Source: an uncultured Desulfospira sp.
GTDB lineage: Bacteria; Desulfobacterota; Desulfobacteria; Desulfobacterales; Desulfobacteraceae
Length of the DNA stretch: 64,000 nt
Direction: 5' to 3'
Assembly (NCBI GenBank): GCA_963663165.1
Contig: OY760175.1
Location: 4,480,001 to 4,544,000 of the forward strand
Each line of letters starts with the position of its first letter. The stretch's first letter is position 1. Below, one piece after another: positions 42,929 to 64,000 of the stretch. The notes under the pieces were generated by a model. It saw only the letters and a list, made by a program, of their open reading frames with translations, did not search any database and was not told the DNA's origin. The position numbers and the translations under genes are program-made.

Positions 42929-43106
42929 ACAAATGATTATGTCCGGATATAGGATAAGAATTTCCTCGTTGTCAACCCCTTTTTGACCCCCAGCCGAATT
43001 TCAGGCAATGCCTGCCCTTGACAAAATTATGGGAAAGAGTTAATTTTGTGGCAGAATGCGACAAAGTTTAGCGGTTAGCATCATAATTGGGAGGAAGGAG
43101 GACGGT

Positions 43107-43511
43107 ATGGCCACAAAATCAATCAGAATCAGTGAACAGCTGGCTTTCCAGGCACAGGCAGCCGGAGCCCTTTATCACCGGAGCATCCCTAATCAGTTGG
43201 AGTATTGGGCAACCCTGGGGAAGATGATATCCAGCAAAATTAATATGGAAGATGCCCTGGCTGTTTTGCAGGGTTTAAAAACCGTGAAAGTTGAGGCCGT
43301 ACCCTCTGCCCCGGTTGATCCTGATGCGGTCTTTGAGCAGCTTGAATCTGACCGGACCACAGGTTTTAACGGCAAACCCGTGACAGGTGCCCCTGTTTTT
43401 TATGAGGCAAGTCTCTCTAAACCCGGCTGCATTGACCAGGTGAATACACAAACCGGAGAAAGGAACACCGGCCGGTTCCGGAATGGCGTGTTTGAGGCCG
43501 CCGATGCCTGA
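43107..43511 (+). CDS. ParD-like (RHH) antitoxin-family protein
   Basis: MATKSIRISEQL..A......RSIPNQLEYWATLGK; AGGAGG RBS before ATG 43107. Confidence 0.75.
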   Translation: MATKSIRISEQLAFQAQAAGALYHRSIPNQLEYWATLGKMISSKINMEDALAVLQGLKTVKVEAVPSAPVDPDAVFEQLESDRTTGFNGKPVTGAPVFYEASLSKPGCIDQVNTQTGERNTGRFRNGVFEAADA

Positions 43512-44082
43512 AGAAAAACAACTTTGGCTTTTGGCCGGTGCAAACGGGGCCGGCAAATCTACCTTTTACAAACAGTATCTGTCAAAACATGGTATTCAAT
43601 TTGTCAATGCCGATTTGATCGCCAGGGAAATTGATCTGGATAACCCGGAAACCGTCAGCTATGAGGCGGCCAATGCGGCGGCAGGCATCCGTTCGGAAAT
43701 GCTGGATCAGGGGGCTTCATTCTGTTTTGAAACCGTATTTTCCCATCCTTCAAAAATCGAATTTATCCAGCAGGCTAAAAATAAACAGTATGATATAGTT
43801 CTGGTTTATATTCACCTGATAAATCCAGAGTTGAATGAAGCCCGTGTTCATCAAAGAACCCTTGAAGGCGGCCACAATGTCCCTACCCAAAAGATTTATT
43901 CCAGGATTCCAAGAACGATAAAACACATCAAGGAGGCATTGACCCTGGTAAACCAGGCCTGGATTTTAGACAATTCATCAGAAAAGGACCGCTTCAAACA
44001 AATTGCTGTAATGAAAAACGGTCGGTTTGAATTCAAGGTCCATCCATTGCCGGAATGGATAAATGAGATTCTGCCATGGTGA
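43504..44082 (+). CDS. Zeta-toxin-like P-loop kinase/ATPase
   Basis: Walker A AGANGAGKST, FVNADLIA, FETVFSH, RV..R...GGHNVP, LDNS; overlaps the upstream gene by 8 bp. Confidence 0.85.
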   Translation: MPEEKQLWLLAGANGAGKSTFYKQYLSKHGIQFVNADLIAREIDLDNPETVSYEAANAAAGIRSEMLDQGASFCFETVFSHPSKIEFIQQAKNKQYDIVLVYIHLINPELNEARVHQRTLEGGHNVPTQKIYSRIPRTIKHIKEALTLVNQAWILDNSSEKDRFKQIAVMKNGRFEFKVHPLPEWINEILPW

Positions 44083-47809: not shown

Positions 47810-47908
47810 AAAAAAACTCACATAAAGGCACAAAGACGCAAAGCTCAAATGGCTTTGGGGGAATGCTATTCTTTGCGCTCTTTCGTGAGAATATAAAAAA
47901 GAGGGCGA
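47810..47908 (-). repeat. Dispersed palindromic ~100-bp element, copy 2
   Basis: Reverse complement reads TCGCCCTCTTTTTTATATTCTCACGAAAG...CAAAGAATA...CTTTGCG...GTGAGTTTTTTT, matching 4457-4554. Confidence 0.8.
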
Positions 47909-48068
47909 AACCCTCAATTTTACCACCACGGCAAGCGCTTTGATTTTGTAGAAAAACCCGTTGAAAAGGGCTGCGAATAAAATTCCTGATGACAATTCAA
48001 TTTGCCGGGGGATTTGCCTTGCGCGGCCCCCGGCAGGTTGAATTGAGGAACAAATACTGGGCCTGTGA

Positions 48069-51000
48069 TTATTCCTGTTTGCAGCCCAAATGGACCACAA
48101 AATAGGGAAAATCCAGGTGATTGATCCGGCCGTCTCCGTTGAAATCGGCCTTTGAGTCGGTCTCATAATCCGGATCACTGGCATTCAGTTCACGCCCCAT
48201 ACGGCTGCTGAAGAAAAGGATATCCTGGCCGTCCACATCCCCGTCTGAGTCCAGGTCCGCATCTGAGCATGATCCTTTGAACAGATAGCCGTAGATATGG
48301 GCGAACAGTACAAGATCCAGTTTATCAATGACCCCGTCGCTGTTAAAGTCGGCCTTGGCGTCAAAGCCGTCATCGGCCGAAGTCAGATTGAGCAGGGACA
48401 TGAGCCGGAAAAGATCGGTGCCGTCGATGTCCAGGTCCCCGTCCAGGTCGCCGTATTTAGGCGGATAGGGCGGCCTGCTGGAGGCATTGAGTGGATCGGT
48501 TTGGGCGTAAAATTCTTCGCCGTCGGTATAACTGTCCTTGTCCGTGTCACTGTCAAAGGGATCGGTGCCGTAGGAAATTTCCAGGCCGTTGGTCAGATCG
48601 TCGTTGTCGGCATCCCCATCTTCGGCAAATGTAGTGAACTGCCAGACCGGGCTTTCCGTGACCTGGTTATAACTGTCCGTGGCCAGGACCTGCCACCAGT
48701 AGGTGGTGCTGAATCCCTCTAATGCCAGCAGGCATCCGGTATCCGGCAGGTTTTTACAAGTTTCATCAATGGTAAAGCTGCCATCTTCAGTTTTGTACTG
48801 GACGGAATACATGACCGTATCCCCCTCATCCGGATCACCCCCGGTCCAGGAGAGGGCCAGATCAACAGAGACATCGGTGTCGCCATTTGAAGGCGTGGGG
48901 GATGAAGGTGCTGATGGCTTATGGTTGACGGTAACGGCACCGGCCGCATAAGCGGTGACGGTGCTGGTGCCATCGGCAATCTGGGCGTAAATGTAATAGG
49001 TGCCGCCGGCCATGCCGGAAAGGTTCCATTCATAGGTGTCGGACTCATCGGAATCTTCTGAAATACCCGAAACAATCAGGGTGCCGTCCTCTCCTGAATC
49101 GTTATCGTCATAGTACAGGGAGATCTGGGCATCGGAATCCGGGTCGGTATCGTCCCAGGAAATGGCCAGCACGGTATCTGAACCGGACACTGTAATAACC
49201 GTACCCGTGTCCGGTGCGGTCAAGGTGATGGCGGGCGGATCATCGGTGGTATCCTCCTTGACGAAAAAGGCCTGAACCTCGCTCCAGTCGCCTTCAATGC
49301 CGTGGGCATCCATAAGTTTGGCCCGCCAATAGTACCAGGTGGCGTTTTCAAGTTCCTGGGAAACCATCAGGGCAAGGTCGTCTGAGGATTCTTCAACCAC
49401 CAGATCGGTTAGGTCTTTATCGGTGTAAACCTCAACCATCATCTCAACGGTATCATTGTCGGGTTCTTCCACCGGGTGGACAGATAATTCAGGGGTCAGG
49501 GTATCCACCCATGCCAGGGCCCCCGGATTTTTGAGTACAGGGGTGCCCGGGGCATCGTTGTAGGTATTAATAAAAAATTGACCCACCACCCATTGGCTTG
49601 CCGACTCGTTGTCACGGGATCTGGCCCGCCAGTAGTAAGTGGTGTTGTCGTTTAAGCCTTGAACCTGCCACTGGGCGGTGCCGTCGGAGATGGTCATCTC
49701 TTGTGCCGTTGAAAAATCCTTTGAAACATCAATCTGAAAATCATACTCAACATCGGCCCCTTCAGGGTCTGTGACTAACCCGACAGACAGCACCACCGCT
49801 GTATTTTTAACTTCTTCGCCCACTGCCGGTGAATCAATTTCTGGAACCGGCGGGGTCTGGTTGGATGTATCCGGAGTAAAGGCAAAAACCTCACTTTGGA
49901 CCGCATTTCCATCAGTATCCTCAACGGTTGCCTGCCAGTAATACGTGCTGCCGTCTGCAAGGTCTTCACTGACCTGGAAAGAGACCATGCCGGAGGCTTC
50001 ATCTAGGGTGCCCTGGCCGGAACAGACCGGATTGGAAAGATCCTGGTTCAGGGATATCGTAAAGGTATAGGTCAGGGAATCCTTTTCCGGATCGGTACTA
50101 TACCCGGACACAAGGACCGGGGTGAGTGAATCCACACTGCCGGAATCTTCCGGCGTCAGCAGTTCCGGTATTCCCGGCGGATCATTGGTTTCACTGACCA
50201 GGAATGATCCGTGGGTCCACAGAGAATAGGCCGTGCCGTCATAGGCCCTGGCCCGCCAGTAATAAGTCTGGTTTTCCACAAGGGTTTCAGTGACGGTCCA
50301 GGGAACCATATTACCCGATTCCGGAAGGCCGCTTTCACGTTCCACAAGGGCGGTGTACCCTTCGTCAGAGAAAAGCTCAAATTCATAGGTTAATGTGTCC
50401 CCGTCAGCGTCTGTGCTGCAAAGAACGGACAATTCCGGATAAAGGGAAGATACAACCCCGTCAACTTCAGGGGCATTGACAACCGGAACGCTGGGGGCGT
50501 TTTCGGTTCCGGTGGGATTGGTGCCGTTTAAAAATTCATCCAGATCTGAAATGCCGTCACCGTCAAAGTCGCCGGTGCCGTCCCGGTCCAGGGTGCCGAA
50601 ATGTTCCTCCTCCCAGTCATCGTCCATGCCGTCACAGTCTATATCATTGACAGGGCAGATGGTCAGGGTGGCGGTCTGGGAGTCGGTCAGGGCTCCGTCC
50701 GAGGCCTTGAACTTGATGGCATAGGATCCGGCCTGGCCGGCGGCCGGGGTCCACATAAAAAGACCTGTGCCGTCGCCGTTGTCTTCAAAGGATGCCCCTG
50801 CCGGTAAGGATGAGGTGGAAAGGGCGGGAATCGTCCCGTTGGCATCACTTGCCTCAACAATAAAGTTGAGCTGTTCTTCTTCGCTGCGCTGCCGGTCAGG
50901 GATATACTGCAGGACCGGGGCGGTGGCAAGGACCGACGCATCTTCAAATACAATGGTGTAGGTCCCCGGGGTGTTCACATCAAACAGATAAACATAGCAG

Positions 51001-52268
51001 TCCCAGGGGTCATCCTTTTCTCTGGTTTTATAGAGCCAGACATTGTCTTCGGATATGGCTTTGCCGTCGGAACGGGTGGCGGACAGGATCACCTTCTCAT
51101 CGGAGAAAGGGTCCTCAAGCTTGACCACCATGGGGCCGGTGGTGGCCGGCACGGTCAGGGTATAGGTGGCCTGGGTGCCTGAGGTGCTGCTTTTTACCAG
51201 TGTGGCGGATGCACTCCGGTCGGTGACGCCGGTATTCACATTGTCTGATTCATAGACAGTGTATGCGGTCCCGTCCAGGGCCAGAAAATCCCGGATCTCG
51301 TCACGGCCGGGCAGGTCCACCAGCACATCATGGACCAGAAAATGGGTGTTCACCGAATCGATCAAAGAGGTCAGCTCCCCGCCCAGCTCGTCGGAATGGG
51401 TAAACTCGGCGGTAAACTCCACAAACTTGCCGTAAAGGGAACAGGTCATGAGCCATCGGGCAGTACCGGCCTCATTGGGCCCAATGTCCCCAAAGTCCAC
51501 CAGAAGGCTTGCGGTCTCCGCTTCCCCGTTCACCTCGCTGCCCTGGATAAAAAAGTTGATCAAAAGCCCCTGCTCGTTTTCCACGATCTTGGGCTGGGCC
51601 GATTCGATTTTCAGAGACCTGGCCGCACCGTCTCCCTGGTTGCTTACCCTCACCCCCAACGAAAAGGGGATTTCTTCTTCTATTTCGGTGGTAAAGGGAT
51701 CATCCCCGTATACGTCGTTGGGAATGAAATAATCCAGCACCAGATCCGGCATGGGCTTGACATAGATATAGTCCGGCGAAACTTCAGTGACATGCTCTTG
51801 CCCGCCAATGGTATAGATCAGCCGAGCCCCCACATAGTAAAGGGTGCCGGACTCAAGGCCGTTGCTGGCCCCCTGGGCCGGGATGATCAGCCAGTGGATA
51901 TCGGCCACGGTGTCGGGTTCCACAACGCCGTCCCCGTTAACGTCGTCAATGTTGCTCATGGTATCGATCCGGATGAAAAACAGGGCGTCGGTATTGCTCG
52001 AATCCGATGAGGCCAGGACATTGGTGCCCTCTTCATCGGCAAAGGAGACTTGGATCTCCACATCTTCCAAAGCGACATGGGTCAGCCCGTTGGTAATTTT
52101 CATGTGGGCATCAAAGGCCTGGCGTTCCAGGGTCAGTTCCTGCTCAATCTGGATTTTAACCCGGGCGCATACGGTCTCGTCGGCCATGGCAGACAAGGGA
52201 ATCCATAACCCCATGAAAAAGAGCATCATCAGGGCCGGACTCAGGACGGAATATTTGGATTTTTTCAT
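48069..52268 (-). CDS. Large secreted protein (1399 aa): N-terminal ~440-aa domain, putative Ig, TSP3-like Ca loops, FN3/Ig repeats, C-terminal dockerin-like repeats
   Basis: Signal peptide MKKSKY..AMA; LPAGASF.DNGDGTG..WTP; DIDCDGMDDDWE / DFDGDGISDLDEF; repeated TYYWRAR; four DxDxDGxID..D..F motifs at the end. Confidence 0.88.
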   Translation of the reverse strand: MKKSKYSVLSPALMMLFFMGLWIPLSAMADETVCARVKIQIEQELTLERQAFDAHMKITNGLTHVALEDVEIQVSFADEEGTNVLASSDSSNTDALFFIRIDTMSNIDDVNGDGVVEPDTVADIHWLIIPAQGASNGLESGTLYYVGARLIYTIGGQEHVTEVSPDYIYVKPMPDLVLDYFIPNDVYGDDPFTTEIEEEIPFSLGVRVSNQGDGAARSLKIESAQPKIVENEQGLLINFFIQGSEVNGEAETASLLVDFGDIGPNEAGTARWLMTCSLYGKFVEFTAEFTHSDELGGELTSLIDSVNTHFLVHDVLVDLPGRDEIRDFLALDGTAYTVYESDNVNTGVTDRSASATLVKSSTSGTQATYTLTVPATTGPMVVKLEDPFSDEKVILSATRSDGKAISEDNVWLYKTREKDDPWDCYVYLFDVNTPGTYTIVFEDASVLATAPVLQYIPDRQRSEEEQLNFIVEASDANGTIPALSTSSLPAGASFEDNGDGTGLFMWTPAAGQAGSYAIKFKASDGALTDSQTATLTICPVNDIDCDGMDDDWEEEHFGTLDRDGTGDFDGDGISDLDEFLNGTNPTGTENAPSVPVVNAPEVDGVVSSLYPELSVLCSTDADGDTLTYEFELFSDEGYTALVERESGLPESGNMVPWTVTETLVENQTYYWRARAYDGTAYSLWTHGSFLVSETNDPPGIPELLTPEDSGSVDSLTPVLVSGYSTDPEKDSLTYTFTISLNQDLSNPVCSGQGTLDEASGMVSFQVSEDLADGSTYYWQATVEDTDGNAVQSEVFAFTPDTSNQTPPVPEIDSPAVGEEVKNTAVVLSVGLVTDPEGADVEYDFQIDVSKDFSTAQEMTISDGTAQWQVQGLNDNTTYYWRARSRDNESASQWVVGQFFINTYNDAPGTPVLKNPGALAWVDTLTPELSVHPVEEPDNDTVEMMVEVYTDKDLTDLVVEESSDDLALMVSQELENATWYYWRAKLMDAHGIEGDWSEVQAFFVKEDTTDDPPAITLTAPDTGTVITVSGSDTVLAISWDDTDPDSDAQISLYYDDNDSGEDGTLIVSGISEDSDESDTYEWNLSGMAGGTYYIYAQIADGTSTVTAYAAGAVTVNHKPSAPSSPTPSNGDTDVSVDLALSWTGGDPDEGDTVMYSVQYKTEDGSFTIDETCKNLPDTGCLLALEGFSTTYWWQVLATDSYNQVTESPVWQFTTFAEDGDADNDDLTNGLEISYGTDPFDSDTDKDSYTDGEEFYAQTDPLNASSRPPYPPKYGDLDGDLDIDGTDLFRLMSLLNLTSADDGFDAKADFNSDGVIDKLDLVLFAHIYGYLFKGSCSDADLDSDGDVDGQDILFFSSRMGRELNASDPDYETDSKADFNGDGRINHLDFPYFVVHLGCKQE

Positions 52269-52287
52269 TGTTTTTCCCTTGATCAAT

Positions 52288-55200
52288 TTAAAATGAAACA
52301 CTGGCACAGCCTCCGGCAGAGCAGGATGGCCCCTTGGTAATGGCGTCGGTCATTCCAAGGGAAACCCCCACGGTTTTACACCCATATGCAAATTTGCCGG
52401 ACGGAAACGACTTGACGGTATAGCTGACTGAACACGTAATTCCAAACCCGCTGCACGAGGCTTTCAGGCTGGCGGACCATTCGGGACTGGTGGGACAGCA
52501 TTTGGTCCCTTCAACCTTACCGATTTTTTTCAGTGAGGGCAGCGATACCCCTATGCATCCGTGTATACACGCTTCAATGGTTGTTTTCCATTCCATCTGC
52601 TTGGTGTCACAGTTACAGCAGCGGGTGAATTGAAGTTTTCCTGAAATTTTAATGCCCGCCGGTGCAATGGGGCCAAGGGGGATACAGCCAAGAGATCCTT
52701 TGACCCCGCCGGAAAAGCTGAATGTCCCAAAAGGATCAATCTTGTTGACGGGGTTGGCATCGGCATATAGATAATAGTTGATATCAACATCGGAAAAAGA
52801 GCCTGCACAGGACTTCCCGGTCAGGTGTTCGCCGGCATCGGGACGGTTTCCCATGCCAATGGGGTCGGTTTCCAGGTACCGGCCTGTGTCGGGGTCATAA
52901 TACCTGGCATAGTTGTAGTGCAGGCCCGATTCTTCATCAAAATACTGGCCCGGCAGCCGTAAATTGCTGACGATGGTCGACCCTTCATCAACACTGGCCT
53001 TTCCATATTCATCATAAACCGCTGACCACACAACGGCGCCGGCCATATCGGTTATTTTCACCGGTTTTTTGACGGTGTCGTTGTGGTAAAAATAATAGGC
53101 GGCGCCGATTTTGACAAACACCGGATCAATGGAGCCTTTGGCCCCGGGCACATACCCATAGGACTTAAGGATTTCTCCCTTATCGTTATATTCTGCCGTA
53201 AGGCCTTCATCGGCATAGCCAAAATAGGTTGTTTCATCGTCCACCGTTTTGCTGATACGCCGCCCAAAGGGATCATAGCTATAAGCGGCCATCACCCCTT
53301 GTAGATCCGAGGTGATCTGAACCAGCCGGTTTTCAAAATCATAGGTGTATTCAAAGGTCTCGGTACCGGTTGTTTTGGTGGCCATATTGCCGTCGGCATC
53401 ATAGGTGACGGTGGTATCGGCATAAGCCGTCAGCTGATCGTTATCATTATATTCCCAGTCCCCGGTGGTTCCGGTTTGTGACAGTCTGTTGCCCATGGGG
53501 TCAAGGGTATAGCTGATGGTTTCACCGGAAGGTCTGGTGGCGGATACCAGGTGGTACTGGTCATCATAATTATAAGCGGTGGTCCCGGTGGACGTAGAAA
53601 TTGAGGTGATATTGAGTTCCTGGTCATATTCAAAACTTTGATTCATGACCGGGTTTTCCCCCGGATCTTTGACGGCAATGCCCGTGGTCCGGTAGAAGGT
53701 GTCGTATTCAAATTCTTTTCGGGTGCCCCCGGGCAGCAGGACGGTGTTGGGGCTGGTCCACTCATAGTCGTTGTAGGAAATGGTGCCGGCTCCCGGAATG
53801 GTGATGGACTCAATTCTGTTGTCCTGGGTATAGGTATATCCATAAGCGGTGCCATCCGGGCCGGTATACCCTTTTTTTAATCCATTGCCGTAATAGTCGT
53901 ACTGATAGGTGGTTGAAAATGCCCCGTAATTAACCGTTTCACTGATTTTCCGATGGGATTGATCGTATTCGTAATGGACACTGATCTGTCCATCGGTGTA
54001 ATCCGTCAGCTGGCCGGCCTTATTATAGGAAAGGGTAAGGGTTTTTTCCGGGGTGCCGGCACTGCTGTTTTCATAATACCGGACTTTTACGGGTTTGTTG
54101 ACGGCATTATAGTCATATTCAGCCACCTGTCCCCGGGCGTTGGTTTTGCGGGCAAGATTGCCGTTGGCATCATATTCATAGGTCGTTGTCTTTTCATCGG
54201 GTCTGATTTCTGCCGTCATCCGGTTGTTCCGGTCATATTGGAACCGGGTCACATGGCCATTGGCGTCGGTTAAGCTGATCAGGTTCTTTCGGTCATCATA
54301 GGCGTACTCGATACGGCTGCCGTCGGGCCGGACCTCCGCGACTTTCCGGCCCACACCATTGTATTCGTAGGCTGTGGTCAGTCCGTTCTGGTCGGTCACC
54401 GCTGAGATACTGTCCATATCATTGTATTCGGTGAGCCGTTCACGCAGCGTTTCCCCCTCTTCGGACTTATAGATATCTTCTATTTTTCGTCCAAGGCTGT
54501 CATACACCTGATGCAGCAGCAGATGGGGATACCGGATCAGGGAGGGTTCCCCGGTGCTGCCGGCGGAACAGGAAGAACACCCCACCGCCGATTCTTCATC
54601 ATATTCGTATGTCACCTGTTTTCCCGCTGAATTGCTCTTGGAGATCAAACGGCCAAGCTTGTCATACTCATAGGTGAGATATCGTCCTTCAGGATCCGTA
54701 TCCTGAAGCACTTTGCCTTCAAAATTGAGCTCATAGACCGTGGTCTGACCTGAAGGATTGGTCTGCCGGATCAACCGGTCCTTACCATCAAAAGCGTACT
54801 CATATTCCCCTCCCATGGCATCGGTCTGTTTTATTTGGTTGCCCACGGCATCATATTCATAGGTGACGGTGTTCCCTAAGGGATCGGTTTCCTCAAGGAT
54901 GCTGCCGTCAACATCATACACATAGGTCCATGTGCCCCCCAGGGGATCTTCCCGGGTCAGGGGCATCCCTAAACTGTTATAGGTGTAACGGGTCGTATGG
55001 CCTTCCGGATCCGTAATGGAGGCCATGTTCCCGTATTCATCATATGTCATTACGGTGAGGCTCTCCAGGGTGTTGTCATCTCCCAGAATCCTTTGGGTCA
55101 GCTGGTTTCCGTCGCTGTCATAGGTGAACTGGTAGGTGATTTCATCATCTGTCCCCGGGGCCAGAATTCTCTGGGTGATATTGCCGTGATCATCGTATTC

Positions 55201-58200
55201 ATAGGTGGCGACGGTTCCGTTTCTCTCCGTCCGTTTGACTTTGAGTTTGGTGTCCGGGTCATATTCGGTCTCTTCTGTTGACCCGTCCGGATAGGTCTTT
55301 TTAATTAACTGGTTCCATTCGTCAAATTCATAGGTCGTTGTATGGCCCCGTTCATCGGTTTTATACCGTTTCCGGTTCTCATACACACTCTCTTCCATGG
55401 TGGTGCCGTTCAGGTCCACACGGGTCACCCGGCCAAGCTCATCGTACCAGGTCTCTTTTATCCGGCCGTTGGGGTAGGTGATCATGTTGTACAGTTCGCT
55501 TTGGGAATCGCCCTGGGCGTAACTGTATTCTGTCCGGTTGCCGTTGGGGTCAATGATGGCGGAAATCCATCCAAAGGAGTTGTACTCCATTTGTGTGGTT
55601 CGCCCGGCCTGATCGGTCTTGGAGGTCATCCGCCCGTCAGAATCATAAGTGTAGTAGAACTCATTTCCCAAAAGGTCCGTGACCGTGGTCAATTGCCCGC
55701 TGGTGTACTGATAGGAGACCTGGCGGCCGTCACCGTCTCGGACCAGCAGGACCCGGCCGTCCGGGTCATATTCATACCAGAGAACCGTATCCCCGAGACT
55801 GTCAACGATATGGACAAGAAGATCGGGATCATCCTCATCATAAACATAAGAGAAGCTGGTTCTGTCCTGGCTTCCCCTGGACAGGATTTTGCCGTCAAGA
55901 TCATAACGGATCCAGCTGCCGACCTTGTCTTTCCATAAATAGCCCTCGTCATCTCTGGTGATGGTTTTAACCTTGTCATAGGTGTAAACCGTTCCGGCCG
56001 TGTCGGACTTTTCGTAATCCACCCCGTCTTTGGTAATGCTTTCCGGTACCGAGGCGTCCACATCATAATTAAACTCAAGCCCCATGCCGGTATCACTGAA
56101 ATGCCAGGTTTGATCATAGTAATACCGGTGCACGGACAGGGTGTCCCCCGGGATTTTCAGGGACATGTCGGCAACATCATCTTCATATTCGCCGTTCATC
56201 AGGTCAACGTAACTTCCAACCATCTCCCGTGCCCTGGTTTTACAGCACTCGTCGGTCACCTCGCACACCGCAACCGGTGTACAGACCACACCGTCGGGAA
56301 TGGAATCCGACGGGGTGTATCCACTGCCGCTGGAGCCGGTAAAGAGTCTGCCGGAAACACCTCCCCACCAGCCCCCGGAGCCTGACCCGGTGCTCCCCCC
56401 GGTGCCGGTGCTGCCGGTGCCGGTACTGCTGCCGGAGCCCACACCGCCGATGCCGTCATCACCGGAGCAGTCCCCCATAGCATGGGTAAAGACAACACAC
56501 CGGACATCTTCATAGCTGGTCCCATTGGAACAGACGTACAGATACCAGAGGCAGGTGGATTTCGTATAGGTAAAACAACTGCCGCCGGCGCCTTCATCCT
56601 CGCCGCTTAAGCTGGAAAGGCAGGTCACCCGGTAGGGAACGGTAATGGATTCTTTGGCACCGATGCTTTCCGGTATACTGGCTAAAAATTCATACTTGAA
56701 GTACTGGTCGGATTCGGGCAGGGCAAATTCAATTTCATCGGCCCGGATAAGGCCGTAGTTGGTAAACCGGATCTCCCCTAACAGCACATCCCCGGGTTCC
56801 ATGTCCGGCAACGTGATGGACGCCGGGTCTGCAATCACCACAGCGGCCGGGACGTCGGTCTCATAGGTGGCGGAAAGCACAATCTCGTACTTGTCTTCAA
56901 TGGTGGTTTCGGTCACCGTCCACTCCACCGATACCAGATTGTAGGACATGAACACGTCTTCCGTAACCGTGATCCCCGGCTTGATCCAGACCCTGCCGGT
57001 GACCTGGTCATGGTTGTCGGCAGTCAGGTAGTATTTATACCGTCCCGTGGGCAGGTCTGATAACAAAATCTCCCCGTATTCGTCGGTGCTCCCGCTGTAG
57101 GAGATGCTCGTGACCGTCTCATTTTGAAAGGTCAGGGCCGCACCGGAAAGTCCCTGGATCATCTCGCCGGTTTCAGCGTCAATGGTGGCGGTGTAGATAT
57201 CCGATACCTTGAACAGCACGTTGCCGATGCCGGAACCGGTCACGGCCGCATGGACAAGAATGTTGGCGGTATCGCAGTTGGAACCGGCCACCTGGATGTA
57301 AAAGTCATATTCCCCTTCCTCAACCGTATCTTCGGTGGGGTAAAACATCAGTGTGAGTTCAACACTCTCCCCGACGTCAATGGACCCCTGGTCTGAGGGC
57401 AGGTTCAGCACCACCCAGTCCGGGGCGGCGGTTCCGTCGGTATTGATCAGTTCCACAGACAGGTCCGCAAGTTCAGAAAAGCCCTTGTTTTCAAGGGTCA
57501 GGGTTTCGGAAGCACTGTCATCCAGGGCCAGGCCGGTCTCCACATAGCTTGGTGAGTAGGAAAGGACAGGGCCTGCGTCGGAACTGTCCGGTTCAACACA
57601 CTTGATGTTGACGGTAAGGGTTCCGATGCCCTCATCAGCGGTTTCATCACTGACCAGGCGCAGCACAACGGTATCATCCTCATCGGCCGTATTGTCGGCC
57701 CATACCGTGACGGTCATGGTTTGGGTGCCACCGGCCCCAAGGCTTGATACCACCTCTCCCGTATCCACATGAATGCCCGTGGGCAGGGTCTGTCCGTCCT
57801 GATCCGATGCATCATAGACAAACTCAAGGTGGGTGGCCTGGGCCGCATTGCCGGCGGTAACCGTGACCGGTATGTCGTACTCATAATTTCTCAGGGCGGT
57901 GAGGTTGTAGGTGGCCGGTGTAAAATTGATGGCCGTGCTGCCCTGTTCAATGATGGAAAAACGGGCCTGCACCGGCCGGTCGCTGAGATCCGGGTGAACG
58001 GCACAGACCTGATATTCCCCGTACACGCCGTCTATGGGGTCAAAGGCATAGGAAAAACTGCCGTCACTGACGGTGTACACATCAATGATTTTTTCAAATC
58101 CGTTAATGGTGATGACCAGGGTTAAAGGCACTTGGGCCAGGGGTTCACCGTCATTGCGGTCCACGGCCCGGCCCGTGATTTCAATGTCCTCGTCTCCATA

Positions 58201-61200
58201 GGACTCTTTGGGGGCCACACTCAAGATCTCGCCGTAATAGGCCGTATCGATCAGGGTGATCTCCCTGCTGGTCTTAACCCCTTCCATTTCCACCTGCTGG
58301 GCGTCCCCGATACTGTAATAAATGCTGCTGATCTCAAGAATCAGTGACAGTTCATCGGGGGCACCGGACGGGACCCCAATACTCATGGCCTTGGATTCAA
58401 AGGTGCTGCCGGCATCAATCCGGGCAACCGTAAGGCCGTTGGAAAGACAGACCACGTTGCCGCCAAAGGTCTGGGTGTAAGATCCCGTGGCAAGAGTATT
58501 GCCGTCTTGGTCGGTCAGATACAGGGTGATGTCGGCTGATGCACTGCCACCGGATTGGGCCGTAACGATTTCAATCTGCTCATCTCCGGTGTTTTCCAGG
58601 GTAAAGACGATCTCTCCTGAAGTGCCCCGGACAAACTCGTCATTGGTAAAGGAAAGCTTGAGCATGCCGGTGCCCACTTCGATCTCAGCGTTGGTTTCAA
58701 TGAGCACCGTTTCGCCGTCATTGGGCTCAATTTCAATGACGGTTTTAAGGGCTGCCGTGTCCGGCAGATCACTGTATCCGCCGATCACCACGGACACGGT
58801 TCTCGATTCTCCGGCACCCAGGTCAAAGGCCTCTGAAACGTGTTCATAGCTTTCCACGGTTACCCGTAACACGGCATCTTCCACGACCGAAGTGCCGCTG
58901 TTGGTCACGGTATAAGAAAGGCGGTTCATAAGCCCCCGCTTAAGACCGGCACCTTCGGGCAGCGCCGCAATCAACGCAGGCAGGACTATGCTTCGGCCAA
59001 GACTTTCCTCATTGTTGTTGTCCACGGCAATGACCGTGTAACGCCGGTCATTTTTGTCGTATCCGCTGTCCGTATAGGTGGACTCGGTCAACTGTCCGGT
59101 GTTCAGCCGGGTGAGGCTGTCCTTTGCACCCAGGTAAATATTGAACCCGGAAATGGTGGACCCCGAATGGGCCCAGGTAATCACCGGGTTCTCTTCATCC
59201 ACCCGGGTCACGGTTAAATCGTTCACCGGCAGCAGGTCAAAGTTAAGATAAGGACTGTTGGACGGGGCTGATTCGTTGCCCACGGCATCAACGGCGGTGA
59301 CCGCATAACGGTGACAGGTATCCGACGGGTTGGTATCCATGGCCGTGACATCTTCAATACCGGTCCGTATGGGGGTCAGCCCTTCCACGGAAGTGATTTC
59401 GACCGTATCGGCCCGGTATAGGGAATAGGTGACGGCTTCGGTATAGGCCGGGGCCGTCCAGGCGGACTGGATGCCCTGGGCGGTGAGTTCAAGGGCCAGA
59501 TCCGTGGGGGCCCCCGGAGCCGTAGCGTCGGATTCAACCTCAATGGAGGCACTTTTGCCGCTTTCAGCCGTCTGGCCATTTTCATTTCTAAGGCTTGCCA
59601 CGGCATAGGTATAGGTGCCGTCCAGGCCGGGGTTGTCCGTATATTCAGTGTCCGCTTCCAGGGTGACCAAAAGGGTTAAGCCAGATTCTCCCGGTGCCTG
59701 CCGGTAGAGCACATAGCCGGATGCCAGGTCAACCTCATCCCAGGAAAGTTTGATGTCGCCTGCAGCCAGGGATGTCCCGGAAAGATTTGTCGGGGCATCC
59801 AGCGGGGGCAGGTCTCCCTGGTAGATCTGGAAGGCGTTGTCTGCGGTAATTTCATCGGAAGAGTTGTCCAGATCATCCACGGCGGAATAGATAAATTCAA
59901 GGGTCTGGGCCCCGGTCAGGCCGGCATCACCGGGCAGGGTAAACACGGCCTGGAAGGATTGGGCATGGCCGTCTTGGGTCTCTATAAGACTGATGTCGGT
60001 AATCGCAATGGCGGTCCCATCTCCCCCTGAGAGCAGATAAGAGAGGACAGGTGTCTCACCGTCTTTGACCTCCTCATCAAGGCCCAGGACCACGGTCAGC
60101 TCAACCGGTTCGGTTTCGTCGTTCTTTACAGGTGAGTCCGGTTCCATCCGGATGTCGATAAGAGACGGGCCTTCAGTGTCAATTTCCACGGACCCGCCTG
60201 AAGATATGGTATCCCCCCGGTTCCCGGCGTCATCCCTTGCCGAGAATACGGCATAGGCCGTCCCTGTGGGCGCGCTGGATTCAATGACAAACAACCCGGT
60301 GTAGACCAGATCCGATGCCTGATCCAGATCGATGGTCATGGGGGTGGCCCCCAGGGGATTGATGCTCAAAAAGGGCGTGGCGGCAAGGGGTTCACTCACG
60401 GTCAGGGTCAGGTAAACCATCCCCGGTCCCATGCGGCCGGTATCTGAATCATATGCCCCCTGGGGAGCGTATTCAATGGACACCGCCTGGGGCGCTGCCC
60501 GGTCGGATGTCCCGGCAGCCAGGGCGGACAAGGCGCTTTCATTTCCGGCATAATCCACGGCCGTGACGCCATAGTAATACTGTCCATCCTCATCGGGAAG
60601 GTCTGTCAGGGCGGTTGCCGTGATCAGATTCGTGTTAAGGACTTGCGCCCCGCCGGTTGTTTCAAAGGATGCCGTCGACCGGTACAGGTTATACCCTTCA
60701 ACGGTGCTGTTAAGGGGCTTGAGCCAGCTCAATACCACGGTGCCCGATGTGCCGGAGGAAGCCTCCAGGTGGGTGGGGCTGTCCGGGATGTCCGTATCCA
60801 GGGTGACGGTGACCGCCGTACTTAAAGGCCCTTCTCCTGCCCTGTTCCGGGCTTTCACCTGGATGCTGTTCTCTCCTTCTGACAGGACGGCCTCAAGGCT
60901 GAAGCTTCCGTTCGCTCCTGCCGCAGTCCAGCTGCCGGTTTCAGCCCCGTTCAGGTAAACCATAACATCGGCAAGGGCCTGGGCCGTTCCCGATATGGTA
61001 ATGGATGGGTCATTGACCAGTTCGCCGCTGGCCGGCGCGGTAATTACCGGTGCCGGGGGCAGCGGCAGGGCCACGGTGACGGTGGTGGAGACCGTGGTGG
61101 TGTTCCCTAAAGTGTCGTAGGCCGTAATCTGGATGGTAAACGAGCCGTCATCAGCGGTAAGGATGTCCCATTGGCATGTGTAATTTGATCCGCTGGTGTC

Positions 61201-64000
61201 GGAAAACACGGTCCCGTTGATCAGGAACTCAACCCGGGATACCCCGCTTTCATCGGATGCATTGCAATTGATGGTGGCTGTACTGTCCACTGTCATGCCG
61301 CTGGTAAGGGGTTCGCCGTTCAATGTGATGTTGGAAATCACAGGGCCAAAGGAATCCATCCGGGGGGTGGCCGGAACGGCTGTTACGCCATTCTGGTCCT
61401 CGCCGCCGGACAGGTTCACCGTTGTCACGGTAAAATAGTAAGTTGTGCCGTTGGCAAGTCCAGCGATGCTTGCCGATGTGCCGGCCGTGGTCAGCACCGG
61501 CGACATGCCCTCAACACTGTCGAAACTTCCGGTGCTCTTGTAAATACGGTAAATTTTAACGTATTCCGATGGTTGTGCCGCACTCCAGGAAAGGGTGATC
61601 CGGCCGTTGAGTTCTTCAATGGTGTGAATACTTGGGTTTTCCATAACCGTGTAGGCGGTCACGGATGCCCCCGAACTTTCATTGCCGCTGGTATCTACGG
61701 CCGTGATTTTAAATGAATAGGCCGTAGAAGACGCAAGGCCGGTTGCTTCATATTGATTTTCATTTTTGGAAAGGGTTACGGCCTCGCCATTGTTGAAATA
61801 GATCAGGTAATGGGAAAGGTCTCCCGTGGTATCAGCGGAGTGATCCCAGGTAAAGGCCAGGCTGTCGGAACCGCTTTTGACCGAAATATTGGTTACATCT
61901 TCAGGGGCATTCTGGATGATAAAGGAACGAACCGCCGGGGTGGCGTCTTCATTGCCCGAATCATCTTTTGTCTTGACCCTGAACACATGCTCCCCGTCGG
62001 CAAGGCCGGTATATTGAATACTGGTATCCGTTGAATATGCCGTCCAGTCATTATCATCCAGCTGGGTGGCATAGGTCAGCAGCCACTGGACATTATCTTC
62101 CCCTGACCAGCTAAAGCCTGCCGTGTTGGTGTACAGAATTTCCCCATCGGCAGGGCCGGAGGAAATGGTGGTTTCCGGCGGGTCCGTATCCAGCAGGGTT
62201 GAAAACGAGGTTTCATCAGAATAATCGGTCCAGCTGCCCCGGCTGTCCAGGTAGCGGACCTGCCAGTAATAGGTCGTGTCAAGGGCCAGGGTCCCGTAGG
62301 AGAGGGTGATGGCGGTCAGGTCCGTGGCGGTCTCTTTAAAAAAGACAGGGTCGTCATAAGAACCGTCAGCTGAACGGACCTGCCATTGGGTGGAGGTGTG
62401 GGTATCCTCCGGGTCCGCATCCTGGAACGTAGATGCCGTCAGGGTCACGTTGGGGTTAATATCTTCGTCCCCGTCTGCCGGGGTTAAATTTACAGGCGGG
62501 TCTGCCCGGTTGTTTTCAAAGGTAATGGTGATGGTATCTGCAGGACTTTCATTGCCGGACCCATCCAGGCTGGTGACGGTGAAAACATGGTCGCCAATGG
62601 AAAGCTCGGCCTCATAGGACCAGGTGGTGCCGCCCGGAGTATAGATGACGCCCTCTTCAGAGCCATTGACCAGGATGGCCGCTGCATCTTCCGTGCAGGT
62701 GCCTTCCAGAACAAAGGAGGCCGACTGAACGGTCATGTCGCCGCCGGCATTGGTGGTAATGGCCGGGGCCCCGGCCGGTGTGGTATCAAGGGTAATGATG
62801 ATCAGGGTCCTGCCGCTGGGGGTATCGGTCCCGTCTAAGGCCTGGACGTAAATATAGTTGTGCCCTTCTGCCAGTGAAACAGCCGCTTGCCAGGTTGTTT
62901 CACCGGATAAATAGGTCACATTGTCTTCTGTATCGTTAACCAGAATCCGGGCCGTTTCTGAAGGGCAGGTCCCTTCCAGTACTATATTTGCGTCACTGGT
63001 GGTAAAATCAATACCGGTATTGGTGGTAATGATGGGATTGGCATACCCCGGGATATAGATGGTGCCGTCTTCGCCGGTTTCATTTCCGTTGGCACCTGAG
63101 ACCGTCACATGTTCAAGAATCTCATCGCCGGGGGAAAGGGTAAAATAATTGAGGGCGATCCTTCCGCCGGCCCCGCCGCCACCGCTGTAGTATCCGGTGC
63201 CGCCATTGGCTGAGATATACCCTGATCCGGTAATGCCCCAGGCCGTGATGTAAATGGAACCACCGGAGCCCCCGCCGGTATACCCGTATCCATTATAGCC
63301 GTTGGCCCCGTTGGCCAGGATATTTCCATTCAGGTTGACGGTCCCGCCGACGGTCAGCCTGAGGGCGCCGCCGCCGGCACCGCCGTCACGGTCGTAATAG
63401 GTGTTGTTGCCGCCGCCGCTGCCCAAAGTGGTCGGTTCAACATTGTCGCCATAACTCGGGCCGCCGTCGGCATATCGCCCGCTGCCGCCCTGTCCGCCGT
63501 GTCCGGCACCACCGGTGCCGGAAGAACCGGCATAATCATCTCCCTGGCCCGGGCCTTCTCCGCCGGCATATCCTTTTTCACTGACATCAATGCTGGCGCC
63601 TGATTCAATATTGATATCCCCGGTTACAGTCAGGTTTAAGGTGTATTCCTGATCACTTTCGTTGGCGCGGTGGGAAAGCGTGGTATCTTCGCTGATTGTC
63701 AGGGTTGTCATGGAAATCGAGCCGGTCTGCTCCAAAGAAATCTTACAGCGGCCCCGGACGATTATCTCGCCATAGTCACCGGAGACGGGCGTTATTCCGC
63801 TGGTCATATCGTTGGCCAGGAGTAAATCCGACAGGCTGTTTTTTGATGATTTTAGGTAGATGGTGCCTGCTCCGCCGTTTTTATACCCGGACCTGCCATA
63901 AGCGGACATGACAATTTGAGAGTCAAGGGTATCGTAGTAAACGGCAATCCTTCCGCCGGCCCCGCCGCCGCCGCTGTAGTAGCCGGTGCCGCCATTGGCT
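52288..64000 (-). CDS. Giant Ig/FN3-repeat RHS (YD-repeat) protein, 5'-truncated (>3900 aa)
   Basis: Frame is open to the window edge. Gly-rich GGGSGG/GGRIA repeats, many FN3/Ig domains, carboxypeptidase-regulatory-like domain, Cys-rich linker, DUF6531-like plug, YD repeats, core PGQYFDEESGLHYNYARYYDP..GRY...DPIG and NPVNKIDPFG, then a 145-aa C-terminal domain. Confidence 0.95.
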   Translation of the reverse strand, partial: ANGGTGYYSGGGGAGGRIAVYYDTLDSQIVMSAYGRSGYKNGGAGTIYLKSSKNSLSDLLLANDMTSGITPVSGDYGEIIVRGRCKISLEQTGSISMTTLTISEDTTLSHRANESDQEYTLNLTVTGDINIESGASIDVSEKGYAGGEGPGQGDDYAGSSGTGGAGHGGQGGSGRYADGGPSYGDNVEPTTLGSGGGNNTYYDRDGGAGGGALRLTVGGTVNLNGNILANGANGYNGYGYTGGGSGGSIYITAWGITGSGYISANGGTGYYSGGGGAGGRIALNYFTLSPGDEILEHVTVSGANGNETGEDGTIYIPGYANPIITTNTGIDFTTSDANIVLEGTCPSETARILVNDTEDNVTYLSGETTWQAAVSLAEGHNYIYVQALDGTDTPSGRTLIIITLDTTPAGAPAITTNAGGDMTVQSASFVLEGTCTEDAAAILVNGSEEGVIYTPGGTTWSYEAELSIGDHVFTVTSLDGSGNESPADTITITFENNRADPPVNLTPADGDEDINPNVTLTASTFQDADPEDTHTSTQWQVRSADGSYDDPVFFKETATDLTAITLSYGTLALDTTYYWQVRYLDSRGSWTDYSDETSFSTLLDTDPPETTISSGPADGEILYTNTAGFSWSGEDNVQWLLTYATQLDDNDWTAYSTDTSIQYTGLADGEHVFRVKTKDDSGNEDATPAVRSFIIQNAPEDVTNISVKSGSDSLAFTWDHSADTTGDLSHYLIYFNNGEAVTLSKNENQYEATGLASSTAYSFKITAVDTSGNESSGASVTAYTVMENPSIHTIEELNGRITLSWSAAQPSEYVKIYRIYKSTGSFDSVEGMSPVLTTAGTSASIAGLANGTTYYFTVTTVNLSGGEDQNGVTAVPATPRMDSFGPVISNITLNGEPLTSGMTVDSTATINCNASDESGVSRVEFLINGTVFSDTSGSNYTCQWDILTADDGSFTIQITAYDTLGNTTTVSTTVTVALPLPPAPVITAPASGELVNDPSITISGTAQALADVMVYLNGAETGSWTAAGANGSFSLEAVLSEGENSIQVKARNRAGEGPLSTAVTVTLDTDIPDSPTHLEASSGTSGTVVLSWLKPLNSTVEGYNLYRSTASFETTGGAQVLNTNLITATALTDLPDEDGQYYYGVTAVDYAGNESALSALAAGTSDRAAPQAVSIEYAPQGAYDSDTGRMGPGMVYLTLTVSEPLAATPFLSINPLGATPMTIDLDQASDLVYTGLFVIESSAPTGTAYAVFSARDDAGNRGDTISSGGSVEIDTEGPSLIDIRMEPDSPVKNDETEPVELTVVLGLDEEVKDGETPVLSYLLSGGDGTAIAITDISLIETQDGHAQSFQAVFTLPGDAGLTGAQTLEFIYSAVDDLDNSSDEITADNAFQIYQGDLPPLDAPTNLSGTSLAAGDIKLSWDEVDLASGYVLYRQAPGESGLTLLVTLEADTEYTDNPGLDGTYTYAVASLRNENGQTAESGKSASIEVESDATAPGAPTDLALELTAQGIQSAWTAPAYTEAVTYSLYRADTVEITSVEGLTPIRTGIEDVTAMDTNPSDTCHRYAVTAVDAVGNESAPSNSPYLNFDLLPVNDLTVTRVDEENPVITWAHSGSTISGFNIYLGAKDSLTRLNTGQLTESTYTDSGYDKNDRRYTVIAVDNNNEESLGRSIVLPALIAALPEGAGLKRGLMNRLSYTVTNSGTSVVEDAVLRVTVESYEHVSEAFDLGAGESRTVSVVIGGYSDLPDTAALKTVIEIEPNDGETVLIETNAEIEVGTGMLKLSFTNDEFVRGTSGEIVFTLENTGDEQIEIVTAQSGGSASADITLYLTDQDGNTLATGSYTQTFGGNVVCLSNGLTVARIDAGSTFESKAMSIGVPSGAPDELSLILEISSIYYSIGDAQQVEMEGVKTSREITLIDTAYYGEILSVAPKESYGDEDIEITGRAVDRNDGEPLAQVPLTLVITINGFEKIIDVYTVSDGSFSYAFDPIDGVYGEYQVCAVHPDLSDRPVQARFSIIEQGSTAINFTPATYNLTALRNYEYDIPVTVTAGNAAQATHLEFVYDASDQDGQTLPTGIHVDTGEVVSSLGAGGTQTMTVTVWADNTADEDDTVVLRLVSDETADEGIGTLTVNIKCVEPDSSDAGPVLSYSPSYVETGLALDDSASETLTLENKGFSELADLSVELINTDGTAAPDWVVLNLPSDQGSIDVGESVELTLMFYPTEDTVEEGEYDFYIQVAGSNCDTANILVHAAVTGSGIGNVLFKVSDIYTATIDAETGEMIQGLSGAALTFQNETVTSISYSGSTDEYGEILLSDLPTGRYKYYLTADNHDQVTGRVWIKPGITVTEDVFMSYNLVSVEWTVTETTIEDKYEIVLSATYETDVPAAVVIADPASITLPDMEPGDVLLGEIRFTNYGLIRADEIEFALPESDQYFKYEFLASIPESIGAKESITVPYRVTCLSSLSGEDEGAGGSCFTYTKSTCLWYLYVCSNGTSYEDVRCVVFTHAMGDCSGDDGIGGVGSGSSTGTGSTGTGGSTGSGSGGWWGGVSGRLFTGSSGSGYTPSDSIPDGVVCTPVAVCEVTDECCKTRAREMVGSYVDLMNGEYEDDVADMSLKIPGDTLSVHRYYYDQTWHFSDTGMGLEFNYDVDASVPESITKDGVDYEKSDTAGTVYTYDKVKTITRDDEGYLWKDKVGSWIRYDLDGKILSRGSQDRTSFSYVYDEDDPDLLVHIVDSLGDTVLWYEYDPDGRVLLVRDGDGRQVSYQYTSGQLTTVTDLLGNEFYYTYDSDGRMTSKTDQAGRTTQMEYNSFGWISAIIDPNGNRTEYSYAQGDSQSELYNMITYPNGRIKETWYDELGRVTRVDLNGTTMEESVYENRKRYKTDERGHTTTYEFDEWNQLIKKTYPDGSTEETEYDPDTKLKVKRTERNGTVATYEYDDHGNITQRILAPGTDDEITYQFTYDSDGNQLTQRILGDDNTLESLTVMTYDEYGNMASITDPEGHTTRYTYNSLGMPLTREDPLGGTWTYVYDVDGSILEETDPLGNTVTYEYDAVGNQIKQTDAMGGEYEYAFDGKDRLIRQTNPSGQTTVYELNFEGKVLQDTDPEGRYLTYEYDKLGRLISKSNSAGKQVTYEYDEESAVGCSSCSAGSTGEPSLIRYPHLLLHQVYDSLGRKIEDIYKSEEGETLRERLTEYNDMDSISAVTDQNGLTTAYEYNGVGRKVAEVRPDGSRIEYAYDDRKNLISLTDANGHVTRFQYDRNNRMTAEIRPDEKTTTYEYDANGNLARKTNARGQVAEYDYNAVNKPVKVRYYENSSAGTPEKTLTLSYNKAGQLTDYTDGQISVHYEYDQSHRKISETVNYGAFSTTYQYDYYGNGLKKGYTGPDGTAYGYTYTQDNRIESITIPGAGTISYNDYEWTSPNTVLLPGGTRKEFEYDTFYRTTGIAVKDPGENPVMNQSFEYDQELNITSISTSTGTTAYNYDDQYHLVSATRPSGETISYTLDPMGNRLSQTGTTGDWEYNDNDQLTAYADTTVTYDADGNMATKTTGTETFEYTYDFENRLVQITSDLQGVMAAYSYDPFGRRISKTVDDETTYFGYADEGLTAEYNDKGEILKSYGYVPGAKGSIDPVFVKIGAAYYFYHNDTVKKPVKITDMAGAVVWSAVYDEYGKASVDEGSTIVSNLRLPGQYFDEESGLHYNYARYYDPDTGRYLETDPIGMGNRPDAGEHLTGKSCAGSFSDVDINYYLYADANPVNKIDPFGTFSFSGGVKGSLGCIPLGPIAPAGIKISGKLQFTRCCNCDTKQMEWKTTIEACIHGCIGVSLPSLKKIGKVEGTKCCPTSPEWSASLKASCSGFGITCSVSYTVKSFPSGKFAYGCKTVGVSLGMTDAITKGPSCSAGGCASVSF

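Follow-up and report, generated by a model that had tools for sequence, protein, structure and literature searches.

The window analysed here is a stretch of 64,000 nucleotides from an uncultured Desulfospira sp. whose genome is a single contig of 6.74 Mb (OY760175.1; the window covers contig positions 4480001-4544000). According to its list of open reading frames (ORFs), it encodes on the minus strand a giant RHS protein, A1, and behind it a large partner, B1 (Table 1). Our reading, held with moderate confidence, is that A1 is a giant RHS polymorphic toxin that has a signal peptide and no linkage to a type VI secretion system (T6SS), and that it works with B1 and a secreted transglutaminase-like protein (TG) as one surface module. 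The C-terminal tips of related proteins vary past the DPxG motifs of the RHS core, and relatives with other tips carry immunity-like membrane ORFs, which argues that the family consists of polymorphic toxins that are independent of the T6SS.

Within the window the A1 frame (52288..63999) stays open at the edge, with 3903 C-terminal residues inside. In the genome ORF map full-length A1 is a single 5454-aa ORF (genome 4532288..4548652), which starts at window-equivalent position 68652 and exceeds the in-window part by 1550 aa. Read by eye, its N-terminus is a Sec signal peptide, with an extended charged part, ~21 hydrophobic core residues and the end ...VNDA/EE. Gly-rich units of 258-273 aa each come next, ~1800 aa in total (~residues 60-1830) and mostly beyond the window. 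They match no Pfam family (a single spurious match reaches 20.9 bits) and no PDB sequence, and an Atlas search with them returned unnamed clusters only. Judged by their sequence, these repeats are probably a beta-helix, and the N-terminal region of A in relatives matches Beta_helix/NosD. In the long stalk of immunoglobulin-like (Ig) and fibronectin type III (FN3) domains, Pfam finds fn3 three times as well as Big_13, Big_7, Y_Y_Y and Ig_Rha78A_N on the in-window part. The conservation profile places the conserved core of A at ~residues 2250-4050, and the module just ahead of the RHS shell is the best-conserved part of A1, with a peak of 72% at residues 3901-3950. This pre-RHS module contains a putative transthyretin-like domain, a beta-sandwich and a Cys-rich knot, the first of these being a weak CarboxypepD_reg match of 21-28 bits, under the 32.3-bit cut-off.

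The shell itself has 13 stretches of RHS_repeat (E 4e-72) and matches YD_repeat_2x (E 5e-61; Pfam/NCBIfam), and the RHS-associated core scores 64.9 bits with TIGR03696 against a cut-off of 32.5. Both DPxG motifs are kept, as ...DPIGMG... and ...NKIDPFG, and are separated by an insert of ~25 aa with a conserved Cys (GNRPDAG...C...DIDIN; window 52726-52900, minus strand). The insert accompanies the Cys-rich tip family of A1 and is absent from the paralogue A4, so that the swapped cassette seems to begin upstream of the first DPxG motif. A sequence-only reading of the window, made before any database search, had described an RHS protein of more than 3900 aa with an Ig/FN3 stalk and an intact DPxG core, followed 19 nt after its stop by a signal-peptide protein of 1399 aa that ends in four dockerin-like calcium loops. 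That description understated the size of A1; its account of the core agrees with the TIGR03696 match and the two motifs, and its account of the partner is borne out by the sequence and by Dockerin_1.

The A1 stop codon, TAA at 52290..52288, is followed by the 19-nt spacer, which leaves no room for any ORF, and by the B1 ATG at 52268; an alternative start of B1 (GTG 52307, giving 1412 aa), which overlaps the RHS gene, is less likely from the sequence. The N-terminus of B1, read by eye, is signal-peptide-like (MKKSKYSVLSPALMMLFFMGLWIPLSAMA). The first ~420 aa match no family, and the conserved N-terminal module (N-module) as a whole comprises about four beta-sandwich domains without a Pfam family, a He_PIG/cadherin-like Ig domain and TSP3-like Ca-binding repeats. 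Its AF2 model is all-beta, a row of beta-sandwiches with a pLDDT of 88.3, for which fold searches returned generic Ig, cadherin and adhesin matches only. The Foldseek rows for the first ~415 residues are generic tandem-Ig with TM below 0.25, the He_PIG-like domain at 417-508 takes up the list of the VIA structure search and is also the only domain matched in the search of PDB sequences, and an Atlas search gave only hypothetical or unnamed clusters; DUF11, at 0.81, is a weak lead there. At the other end of the protein, Dockerin_1 matches two stretches of the C-terminal 243 aa with 42.5 bits against a cut-off of 22.9 (window 48108-48257 and 48306-48455), and these hold four DxDxDG-type loops. 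Past the B1 stop, the hairpin at 47915..47901 is likely the end of the operon, judging by its consensus match.

The arrangement is repeated within this genome. By tblastn and ORF maps we count six giant RHS genes (A), of 3730-5454 aa, and six B genes, which form five A-B neighbourhoods with A and B 19-63 nt apart in four pairs. The region directly upstream of A1 holds another such pair, formed by A2 of 5247 aa and B2 of 1439 aa, at genome 4549296-4570298 (window-equivalent 69296-90298; loci L010 and L011); identity is 62% between A1 and A2 and 77% between B1 and B2. A gene for a secreted TG of 300 aa stands 59 nt ahead of A2, giving the order TG-A2-B2. The other neighbourhoods are A3-B3 at 3.55 Mb, TG-A4-B4 at 3.66-3.68 Mb and B5-TG-A5 at 1.20-1.22 Mb.

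Several further features surround these copies. A3 (genome 3556066-3568785, L024) has 3730 aa, lacks Gly-rich repeats of the A1 type and has a 495-aa ORF just upstream on the same strand; its gene may be split, or it may have a different N-terminus. The gene after B3 (L024:53-679, minus strand; genome 3552752-3553378) encodes 208 aa with a PEP-CTERM-like end at 16.5 bits, under cut-off. Between B2 and A1 lies a non-coding gap of 643 nt (L009:4653-5295; genome 4548653-4549295), in which Rfam gave 0 matches at E <= 1, and gaps of ~0.8-1.2 kb from B to A recur in a number of other genomes (L044, L053, L062, L096 and L103). B5-TG-A5 is followed by an insertion-sequence-type ORF of 465 aa and three orphan RHS cassettes of 1862, 1962 and 1671 aa (genome 1204104-1269208; L026, L027 and L030).

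It is past the RHS core that the copies differ in kind. The A proteins of this genome carry three tip types of 115-170 aa, with further types in the orphan cassettes: the Cys-rich tip is common to A1, A2 and A3 (42-50% identity among the three, ~42% between A1 and A2), the A4 tip is a hydrophobic glycine-zipper type, and yet other tips are found on A5, A6 and the orphan cassettes. Loci of other genomes add 14 tips of differing kind, and several of the swapped tips look membrane-active (glycine zippers) or Hint-like. The orphan cassettes at 1.23-1.27 Mb end in three different tips, each then followed by a small ORF with multiple transmembrane segments (154, 174 and 109 aa), and on its sequence this array downstream of B5-TG-A5 is a classic orphan toxin/immunity array. 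In L069, L097 and L106, likewise, A and B are separated by ORFs of 92-186 aa. By sequence, the small ORFs after other tips have the place and size expected of immunity genes and can be called immunity-like. For the Cys-rich tip type there is no immunity-sized ORF, and B follows directly in all five genes (A1, A2, A3 and those of L031 and L033). The earlier claim that the module has no immunity gene holds for the Cys-rich tip and gives way for relatives with other tips; since those relatives have immunity-like ORFs, the suggestion that A1 might be structural rather than toxic is left as the weaker branch.

Two candidates for an immunity factor were rejected. A 134-aa ORF at 47780..48184 matches no family, overlaps the end of B1, contains the terminator-like hairpin and has no counterpart after B3 or B4. 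B itself has a conserved part that is constant across tip types, and in most genomes its gene precedes that of A.

The tip of A1 belongs to a family with 12 Cys residues invariant across 10 sequences and an aromatic last residue in eight of them. A profile of the tip found only six representatives among 1.84 billion proteins, all of them C-terminal and past an RHS core. The AF2 model has eight long beta strands at a pLDDT of 68.5; Foldseek found nothing for it at E <= 0.001, and the best match among PDB sequences had an E value of only 0.85. Outer-membrane barrels make up most of the top VIA rows, with Omp33 (Z 5.8, rmsd 3.0, 88 aligned residues), KdgM (Z 5.1) and NanC (Z 5.0). The model points to a beta-meander or barrel that is possibly membrane-inserting. 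The accessible text of Raoelijaona et al. (2026; PMC13018210) describes predicted 'OMP' C-terminal domains in shell-encased toxins, including one of a Desulfobacterales species, and 'OMP' tips also in Gram-positive Paenibacillaceae, which lack an outer membrane. It further reports one hydrophobic tip that permeabilises Escherichia coli solely when exported, which by analogy fits an A1 cargo acting from outside.

The N-module of B, used as query, has more than 1750 homologous proteins, and across its whole length the 120 listed share 55-100% identity with it. The C-terminal domains of these homologues vary widely and include dockerin, PKD, CHB_HEX_C, CarboxypepD_reg and others. A genome scan with one genome per species found 291 relatives of the N-module, and 80 loci were kept, in which it is 49-79% identical to that of the window and spans six named phyla. 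The titles of these loci name Desulfobacterales families, Syntrophaceae, Syntrophorhabdaceae, Thiotrichaceae, Parabeggiatoa, Lentisphaerota, Chitinispirillaceae, Nitrospirae and Myxococcota; Desulfonema magnum and Desulfosarcina cetonica are cultured relatives among them. The identity of the N-module is more than a fold of this kind, usually free to drift, would be expected to keep, and speaks for a fixed binding partner; its constant neighbours are the conserved core of A, and TG. Within the window's own taxonomic family the N-module occurs in 11 of 100 other genomes and in seven of 19 genera, and a quick, unfinished tree intermixes phyla; this patchy, phylum-mixed distribution is at most suggestive of transfer.

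Counted manually, and with many of the contigs short, a TG homologue is present in 55 of the 80 loci and an A-type sequence in 33. Among the 72 loci with 1 kb or more available upstream of B, 46 have TG immediately ahead of B, 11 have an RHS end no more than 2.5 kb away, and 15 have neither. Where at least 3 kb is available downstream (35 loci), an A homologue follows in 11, another ORF of at least 600 aa in nine and none in 15. Beta_helix/NosD repeats open four of these nine other large ORFs, as would be expected of a variable A N-terminus, and six of the 15 loci without a giant downstream ORF have an RHS gene upstream of B. TG-B-A is the common gene order, and the A-B order of the window also occurs, for example in L031, L033, L035, L069, L076, L084 and L097. 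TG matches Transglut_core (PF01841; E 9e-21 in Pfam), its Cys-His-Asp triad (C201/H239/D254) is intact in 49 of 49 sequences, and its gene often overlaps the start of B (for example in L041, L050, L105, L108 and L109). The two-gene module of the sequence-only reading is confirmed in that A and B co-occur, in five neighbourhoods here and in other genomes, and falls short in that there are three genes, TG travelling with B. The comparison across genomes also gives a positive answer to the test it proposed: variation is confined to the region past DPxG while the gene pair is conserved.

Upstream of TG-B in other genomes we also noted genes for B12-binding radical SAM proteins (five loci) and asparagine synthase (two loci), in L041, L048, L052, L066, L071, L096 and L099. 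Their recurrence may reflect a shared exopolysaccharide/PEP-CTERM neighbourhood.

The T6SS markers of this genome are not linked to A1. PAAR (PF05488) has 0 matches in the 6.74 Mb, the single match to VgrG-type Phage_GPD lies at 6.586 Mb, more than 2 Mb from the A1 locus at 4.53 Mb, and the two TssC matches (6.595 and 3.305 Mb) are both more than 1 Mb away from it; neither VgrG nor TssC adjoins any of the mapped A and B copies. With a Sec signal peptide found at the start of A1 once the sequence upstream of the window was retrieved, the earlier statement that no PAAR/VgrG link is visible is upheld. No type I secretion system, RTX repeats or LapD-type regulator was seen at the A1 locus either. 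For anchoring, the dockerins of B1 direct attention to two small signal-peptide proteins that combine a cohesin match (30.5 bits in one, 21.7 in the other, with a cut-off of 24.1) with a PEP-CTERM-like end of VPxPSA, hydrophobic stretch and basic residues. The genome has three exosortase matches, and a FemAB XrtA/PEP-CTERM-associated gene (TIGR03019, E 9e-66, under cut-off) lies upstream of the A2-B2 array. From these matches, cohesin/PEP-CTERM anchoring of B is a lead. Dockerin-bearing genes at 5962032 and 5969750 lie near the second of the cohesin proteins (L015).

Among known systems, the module is by its domain content a member of the Sec-type RHS polymorphic toxin class. With the Sec-dependent (type II secretion-class) RHS toxins described in the accessible text of Zhang et al. 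(2012; PMC3482391), A1 shares its signal peptide, its RHS repeats and its swappable tip, and orphan cassettes with small immunity-like ORFs of the kind described there also occur in this genome. Unlike those toxins, A1 has no immunity ORF after its tip. The same text places transglutaminase domains on Sec-type RHS toxins, beside bacterial Ig domains; there they are fused to the toxin and have lost the triad, whereas here the transglutaminase is a separate secreted protein that keeps it. The B partner and its dockerins do not appear in the accessible part of that description.

A closer parallel is offered by the bacterial teneurin-like proteins (TLPs) of Raoelijaona et al. (2026), which in the accessible text share with A1 a Sec signal, an N-terminus of adhesion domains, a YD shell, a DPxG core, a polymorphic tip of ~15 kDa and no known delivery machinery; their transthyretin-like domain ahead of the shell may have a counterpart in the weak CarboxypepD_reg match of A1. 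In that text FN-plug, NHL and YD shell define TLPs. Whereas TLPs carry NHL, A1 has only ~130 aa from the linker to its first RHS repeat, and a search of the 1167 aa that lead up to the shell and into it gave no NHL match at E <= 10; its pre-RHS module (56461-57237) could be equivalent to the TLP FN-plug/TIP. Nearly all TLPs are described with an immunity gene downstream, in contrast to A1, and neither TG nor B is mentioned in the accessible part of the study. From its sequence, A1 appears to work like TLPs but fails their defining NHL feature, so that the teneurin-like logic proposed in the sequence-only reading stands for the Sec signal, shell, DPxG core and tip and lapses at the missing NHL domain.

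T6SS Rhs effectors also resemble A1 in their RHS shell, self-cleaving core and encapsulated polymorphic tip. They have a PAAR/prePAAR or VgrG link where A1 has a signal peptide, and A1 has ~4000 aa of extra N-terminal stalk; on these sequence grounds A1 is not a T6SS Rhs effector. For TG the accessible account of the Lap system (PMC3032545) is instructive, in which the transglutaminase-like protease LapG cuts the giant adhesin LapA off the cell: there, as in the module, the genes for a giant surface protein and for a cysteine enzyme of transglutaminase fold, periplasmic or secreted, occur together. With TG known here as a Transglut_core match, LapA/LapG would be a functional precedent, by analogy only, for a TG that controls a giant surface protein. 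Dockerin surface proteins and cohesins of Desulfobacterota (syntrophic sulfate reducers) have been proposed as adhesins in the accessible text of PMC10553843; unlike those, the dockerins here terminate a conserved RHS-linked partner, and the cohesins have PEP-CTERM-like ends. Our literature search, which did not extend to subscription journals and supplements, found no paper on an RHS gene with a B partner, a separate TG gene or a three-gene module, and no paper combining PEP-CTERM, cohesin and dockerin.

How the parts might act together can be sketched as follows. After Sec export of A, the RHS shell would enclose the self-cleaved tip, and the conserved N-module of B would hold or position A. 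B could serve as a conserved adaptor whose anchor, made of its C-terminal binding modules, can be swapped; here these modules are two dockerins, which would attach B to cohesin proteins that an exosortase sorts. TG would cross-link or cut one of the partners, much as LapG releases LapA. The Cys-rich tip, the predicted beta-hairpin meander or barrel, may then insert into the target membrane from outside, and such entry would explain the absence of an immunity gene for this tip. We also consider, tentatively and with more doubt than conviction, a bolder version, in which TG-B-A is an unrecognised, horizontally mobile apparatus for contact-dependent delivery, with Sec-exported RHS capsules that need no injection machine, B as universal adaptor, TG as trigger and tips that enter the outer membrane of a neighbour. 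B would plug the capsule onto whichever anchor its host has available (dockerin, PKD or carbohydrate-binding modules), TG would free or cross-link the capsule, and the disulfide-stapled beta-barrel tip would insert directly.

Several observations weigh against our favoured reading of a toxin module. The tip model is only moderately confident at its pLDDT of 68.5; soluble eight-strand barrels score alike in VIA (VapB Z 5.2, VapG Z 5.1), all Z scores of the tip stay below 6, a range that VIA rates as a common arrangement, and 12 invariant Cys would be unusual for a membrane barrel. The fold matches of the B N-module, generic as they are, indicate no specific activity. One of the two cohesin matches and both PEP-CTERM motif matches are under the Pfam cut-off, and with 20 dockerin matches in the genome dockerins are not specific to the module. 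A6 stands without a B and B7 without an A, and there are three TG genes for six A genes. The model also names no route for an A of 5454 aa across the outer membrane, and a look through 8 runs from 3 studies turned up none with RNA.

Some of this evidence can be read in other ways. An unlikely alternative, in our judgement, is that A and B serve adhesion or recognition and not killing, as a teneurin-like cell-cell or cell-matrix fibre whose tip is a structural or ligand domain. It would account for the absence of an immunity-sized ORF in five of five genes with the Cys-rich tip and for the sharing of one tip family by A1 and A2 at ~42% identity; the stalk and B are built from adhesion-type domains, the module adjoins PEP-CTERM/exopolysaccharide-type genes, and the accessible text of PMC13018210 leaves a communication role for shell proteins possible. 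Yet an RHS core kept with both DPxG motifs fits cargo cleavage and encapsulation, tips are swapped among relatives, several of them with a membrane-active (glycine-zipper) or Hint-like look, and immunity-like membrane ORFs follow tips other than the Cys-rich one. We hold it quite unlikely as well that B and TG make up a surface or matrix system of their own, uncoupled from A, that merely shares islands with RHS genes. The unpaired B7 and A6, the 15 of 35 loci without a giant ORF after B (six with an RHS end upstream), the varying gene order (TG-B-A, A-B and B-TG-A) and the 20 dockerin-bearing companions of B in this genome would suit such independence; against it stand the five A-B neighbourhoods in one genome, with four pairs so closely spaced, and the recurrence of A beside B in several phyla despite a spread so patchy that B reaches 11 of 100 other genomes of the same family.

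Two other proposals concern the role of single parts, and we give both very little credence. If the tip were the producer's own outer-membrane anchor or translocator, with beta-helix, stalk and shell as an autotransporter-like passenger, the eight predicted long strands, the terminal aromatic residue in eight of 10 sequences, the autotransporter beta-domains among the weak VIA rows (Z 4.5-4.9) and the likely beta-helix at the N-terminus of A would find a place. The tip follows an intact RHS self-cleavage core, though, and would be cut off and enclosed; A1 has no match to the Autotransporter Pfam family, paralogues have unrelated tips at the same place, and eight strands are too few for known translocators, the type V autotransporter domain having 12. 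OMP-like tips in Paenibacillaceae, which have no outer membrane (PMC13018210, accessible text), point the same way. Just as improbable is that B is a TcA-like delivery subunit that binds the target and conducts the cargo across its membrane. An RHS capsule encoded beside a large partner does recall Tc toxins, and the variable C-terminal modules of B could pick targets, but the N-module is predicted to be all-beta and Ig-like with no helical channel, no Tc family is among the Pfam and NCBIfam matches of A1 and B1, and the dockerins point to the producer's own cohesins. Judged on the model of the conserved module of B, the Tc analogy fails on its all-beta fold.

The features discussed are collected in Table 1. 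Some 4 kb from the module, a gene for a ParD-like antitoxin (151 aa) overlaps one for a zeta-toxin/AAA_33 kinase (199 aa) at window 43056-44082 on the plus strand, and by sequence the two form a type II toxin-antitoxin pair.

Table 1. Features of the A1-B1 module and candidate anchoring proteins (window positions unless a locus is given)
Feature	Position	Strand	Evidence
A1, giant RHS protein, C-terminal 3903 of 5454 residues	52288..64000	-	ORF list, translation, genome ORF, Pfam and NCBIfam
Gly-rich repeats of A1, last part	63100..64000	-	internal DNA and protein repeats
Ig/FN3/CARDB-like stalk of A1, ~1950 aa	57238..63099	-	fn3, Big_13, Big_7, Y_Y_Y, Ig_Rha78A_N, Glucodextran_B
Pre-RHS module, A1 residues 3806-4064	56461..57237	-	conservation profile, 20-sequence alignment, weak CarboxypepD_reg
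Gly/Ser-rich linker, stalk to shell	56290..56460	-	read from translation
RHS/YD shell of A1, end ...NPVNKIDPFG	52726..56232	-	RHS_repeat x13, RHS, TIGR03696, motif scan, tails of relatives
C-terminal tip of A1, 145 aa, 12 invariant Cys	52291..52725	-	alignments, profile search, AF2, fold searches
Spacer A1-B1, 19 nt, AAGGGA ribosome-binding-like motif	52269..52287	-	sequence
Partner B1, 1399 aa from ATG	48069..52268	-	ORF list, translation, Pfam
Conserved N-module of B, 556 aa	50508..52175	-	homologue search, AF2, fold searches
Variable FN3/PhoD_N/Ig_Rha78A_N-type repeats of B1	48800..50507	-	Pfam; indels in paralogue alignment
Two dockerin modules of B1, four Ca loops, preceded by bacterial TSP3 repeats	48108..48455	-	Dockerin_1, Pfam
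Terminator-like hairpin and T-run, 154 nt past B1 stop	47901..47915	-	consensus match only
Cohesin/PEP-CTERM-like protein	L014:1288-1983, ~5.635 Mb	+	profile matches
Cohesin/PEP-CTERM-like protein	L015:1381-1902, ~5.967 Mb	-	profile matches

Shell-encased RHS toxins with nothing more than a signal peptide are already known, and how they attach to the cell and are delivered to a target is left open in the Discussion of Raoelijaona et al. (2026), as far as it is accessible. The N-module of B and a TG with a kept triad are candidates for the step of holding the capsule and handing it over; if the contact-dependent delivery apparatus considered above were real, it would supply the display and delivery machinery that is missing in that study. 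The Cys-rich tips are an uncharacterised cargo family that is consistently without an immunity gene. The module is multi-copy in this genome, patchy among relatives and mixed across phyla in the quick tree, a pattern that would be expected if it were a mobile system for conflict or social interaction within sediment communities.

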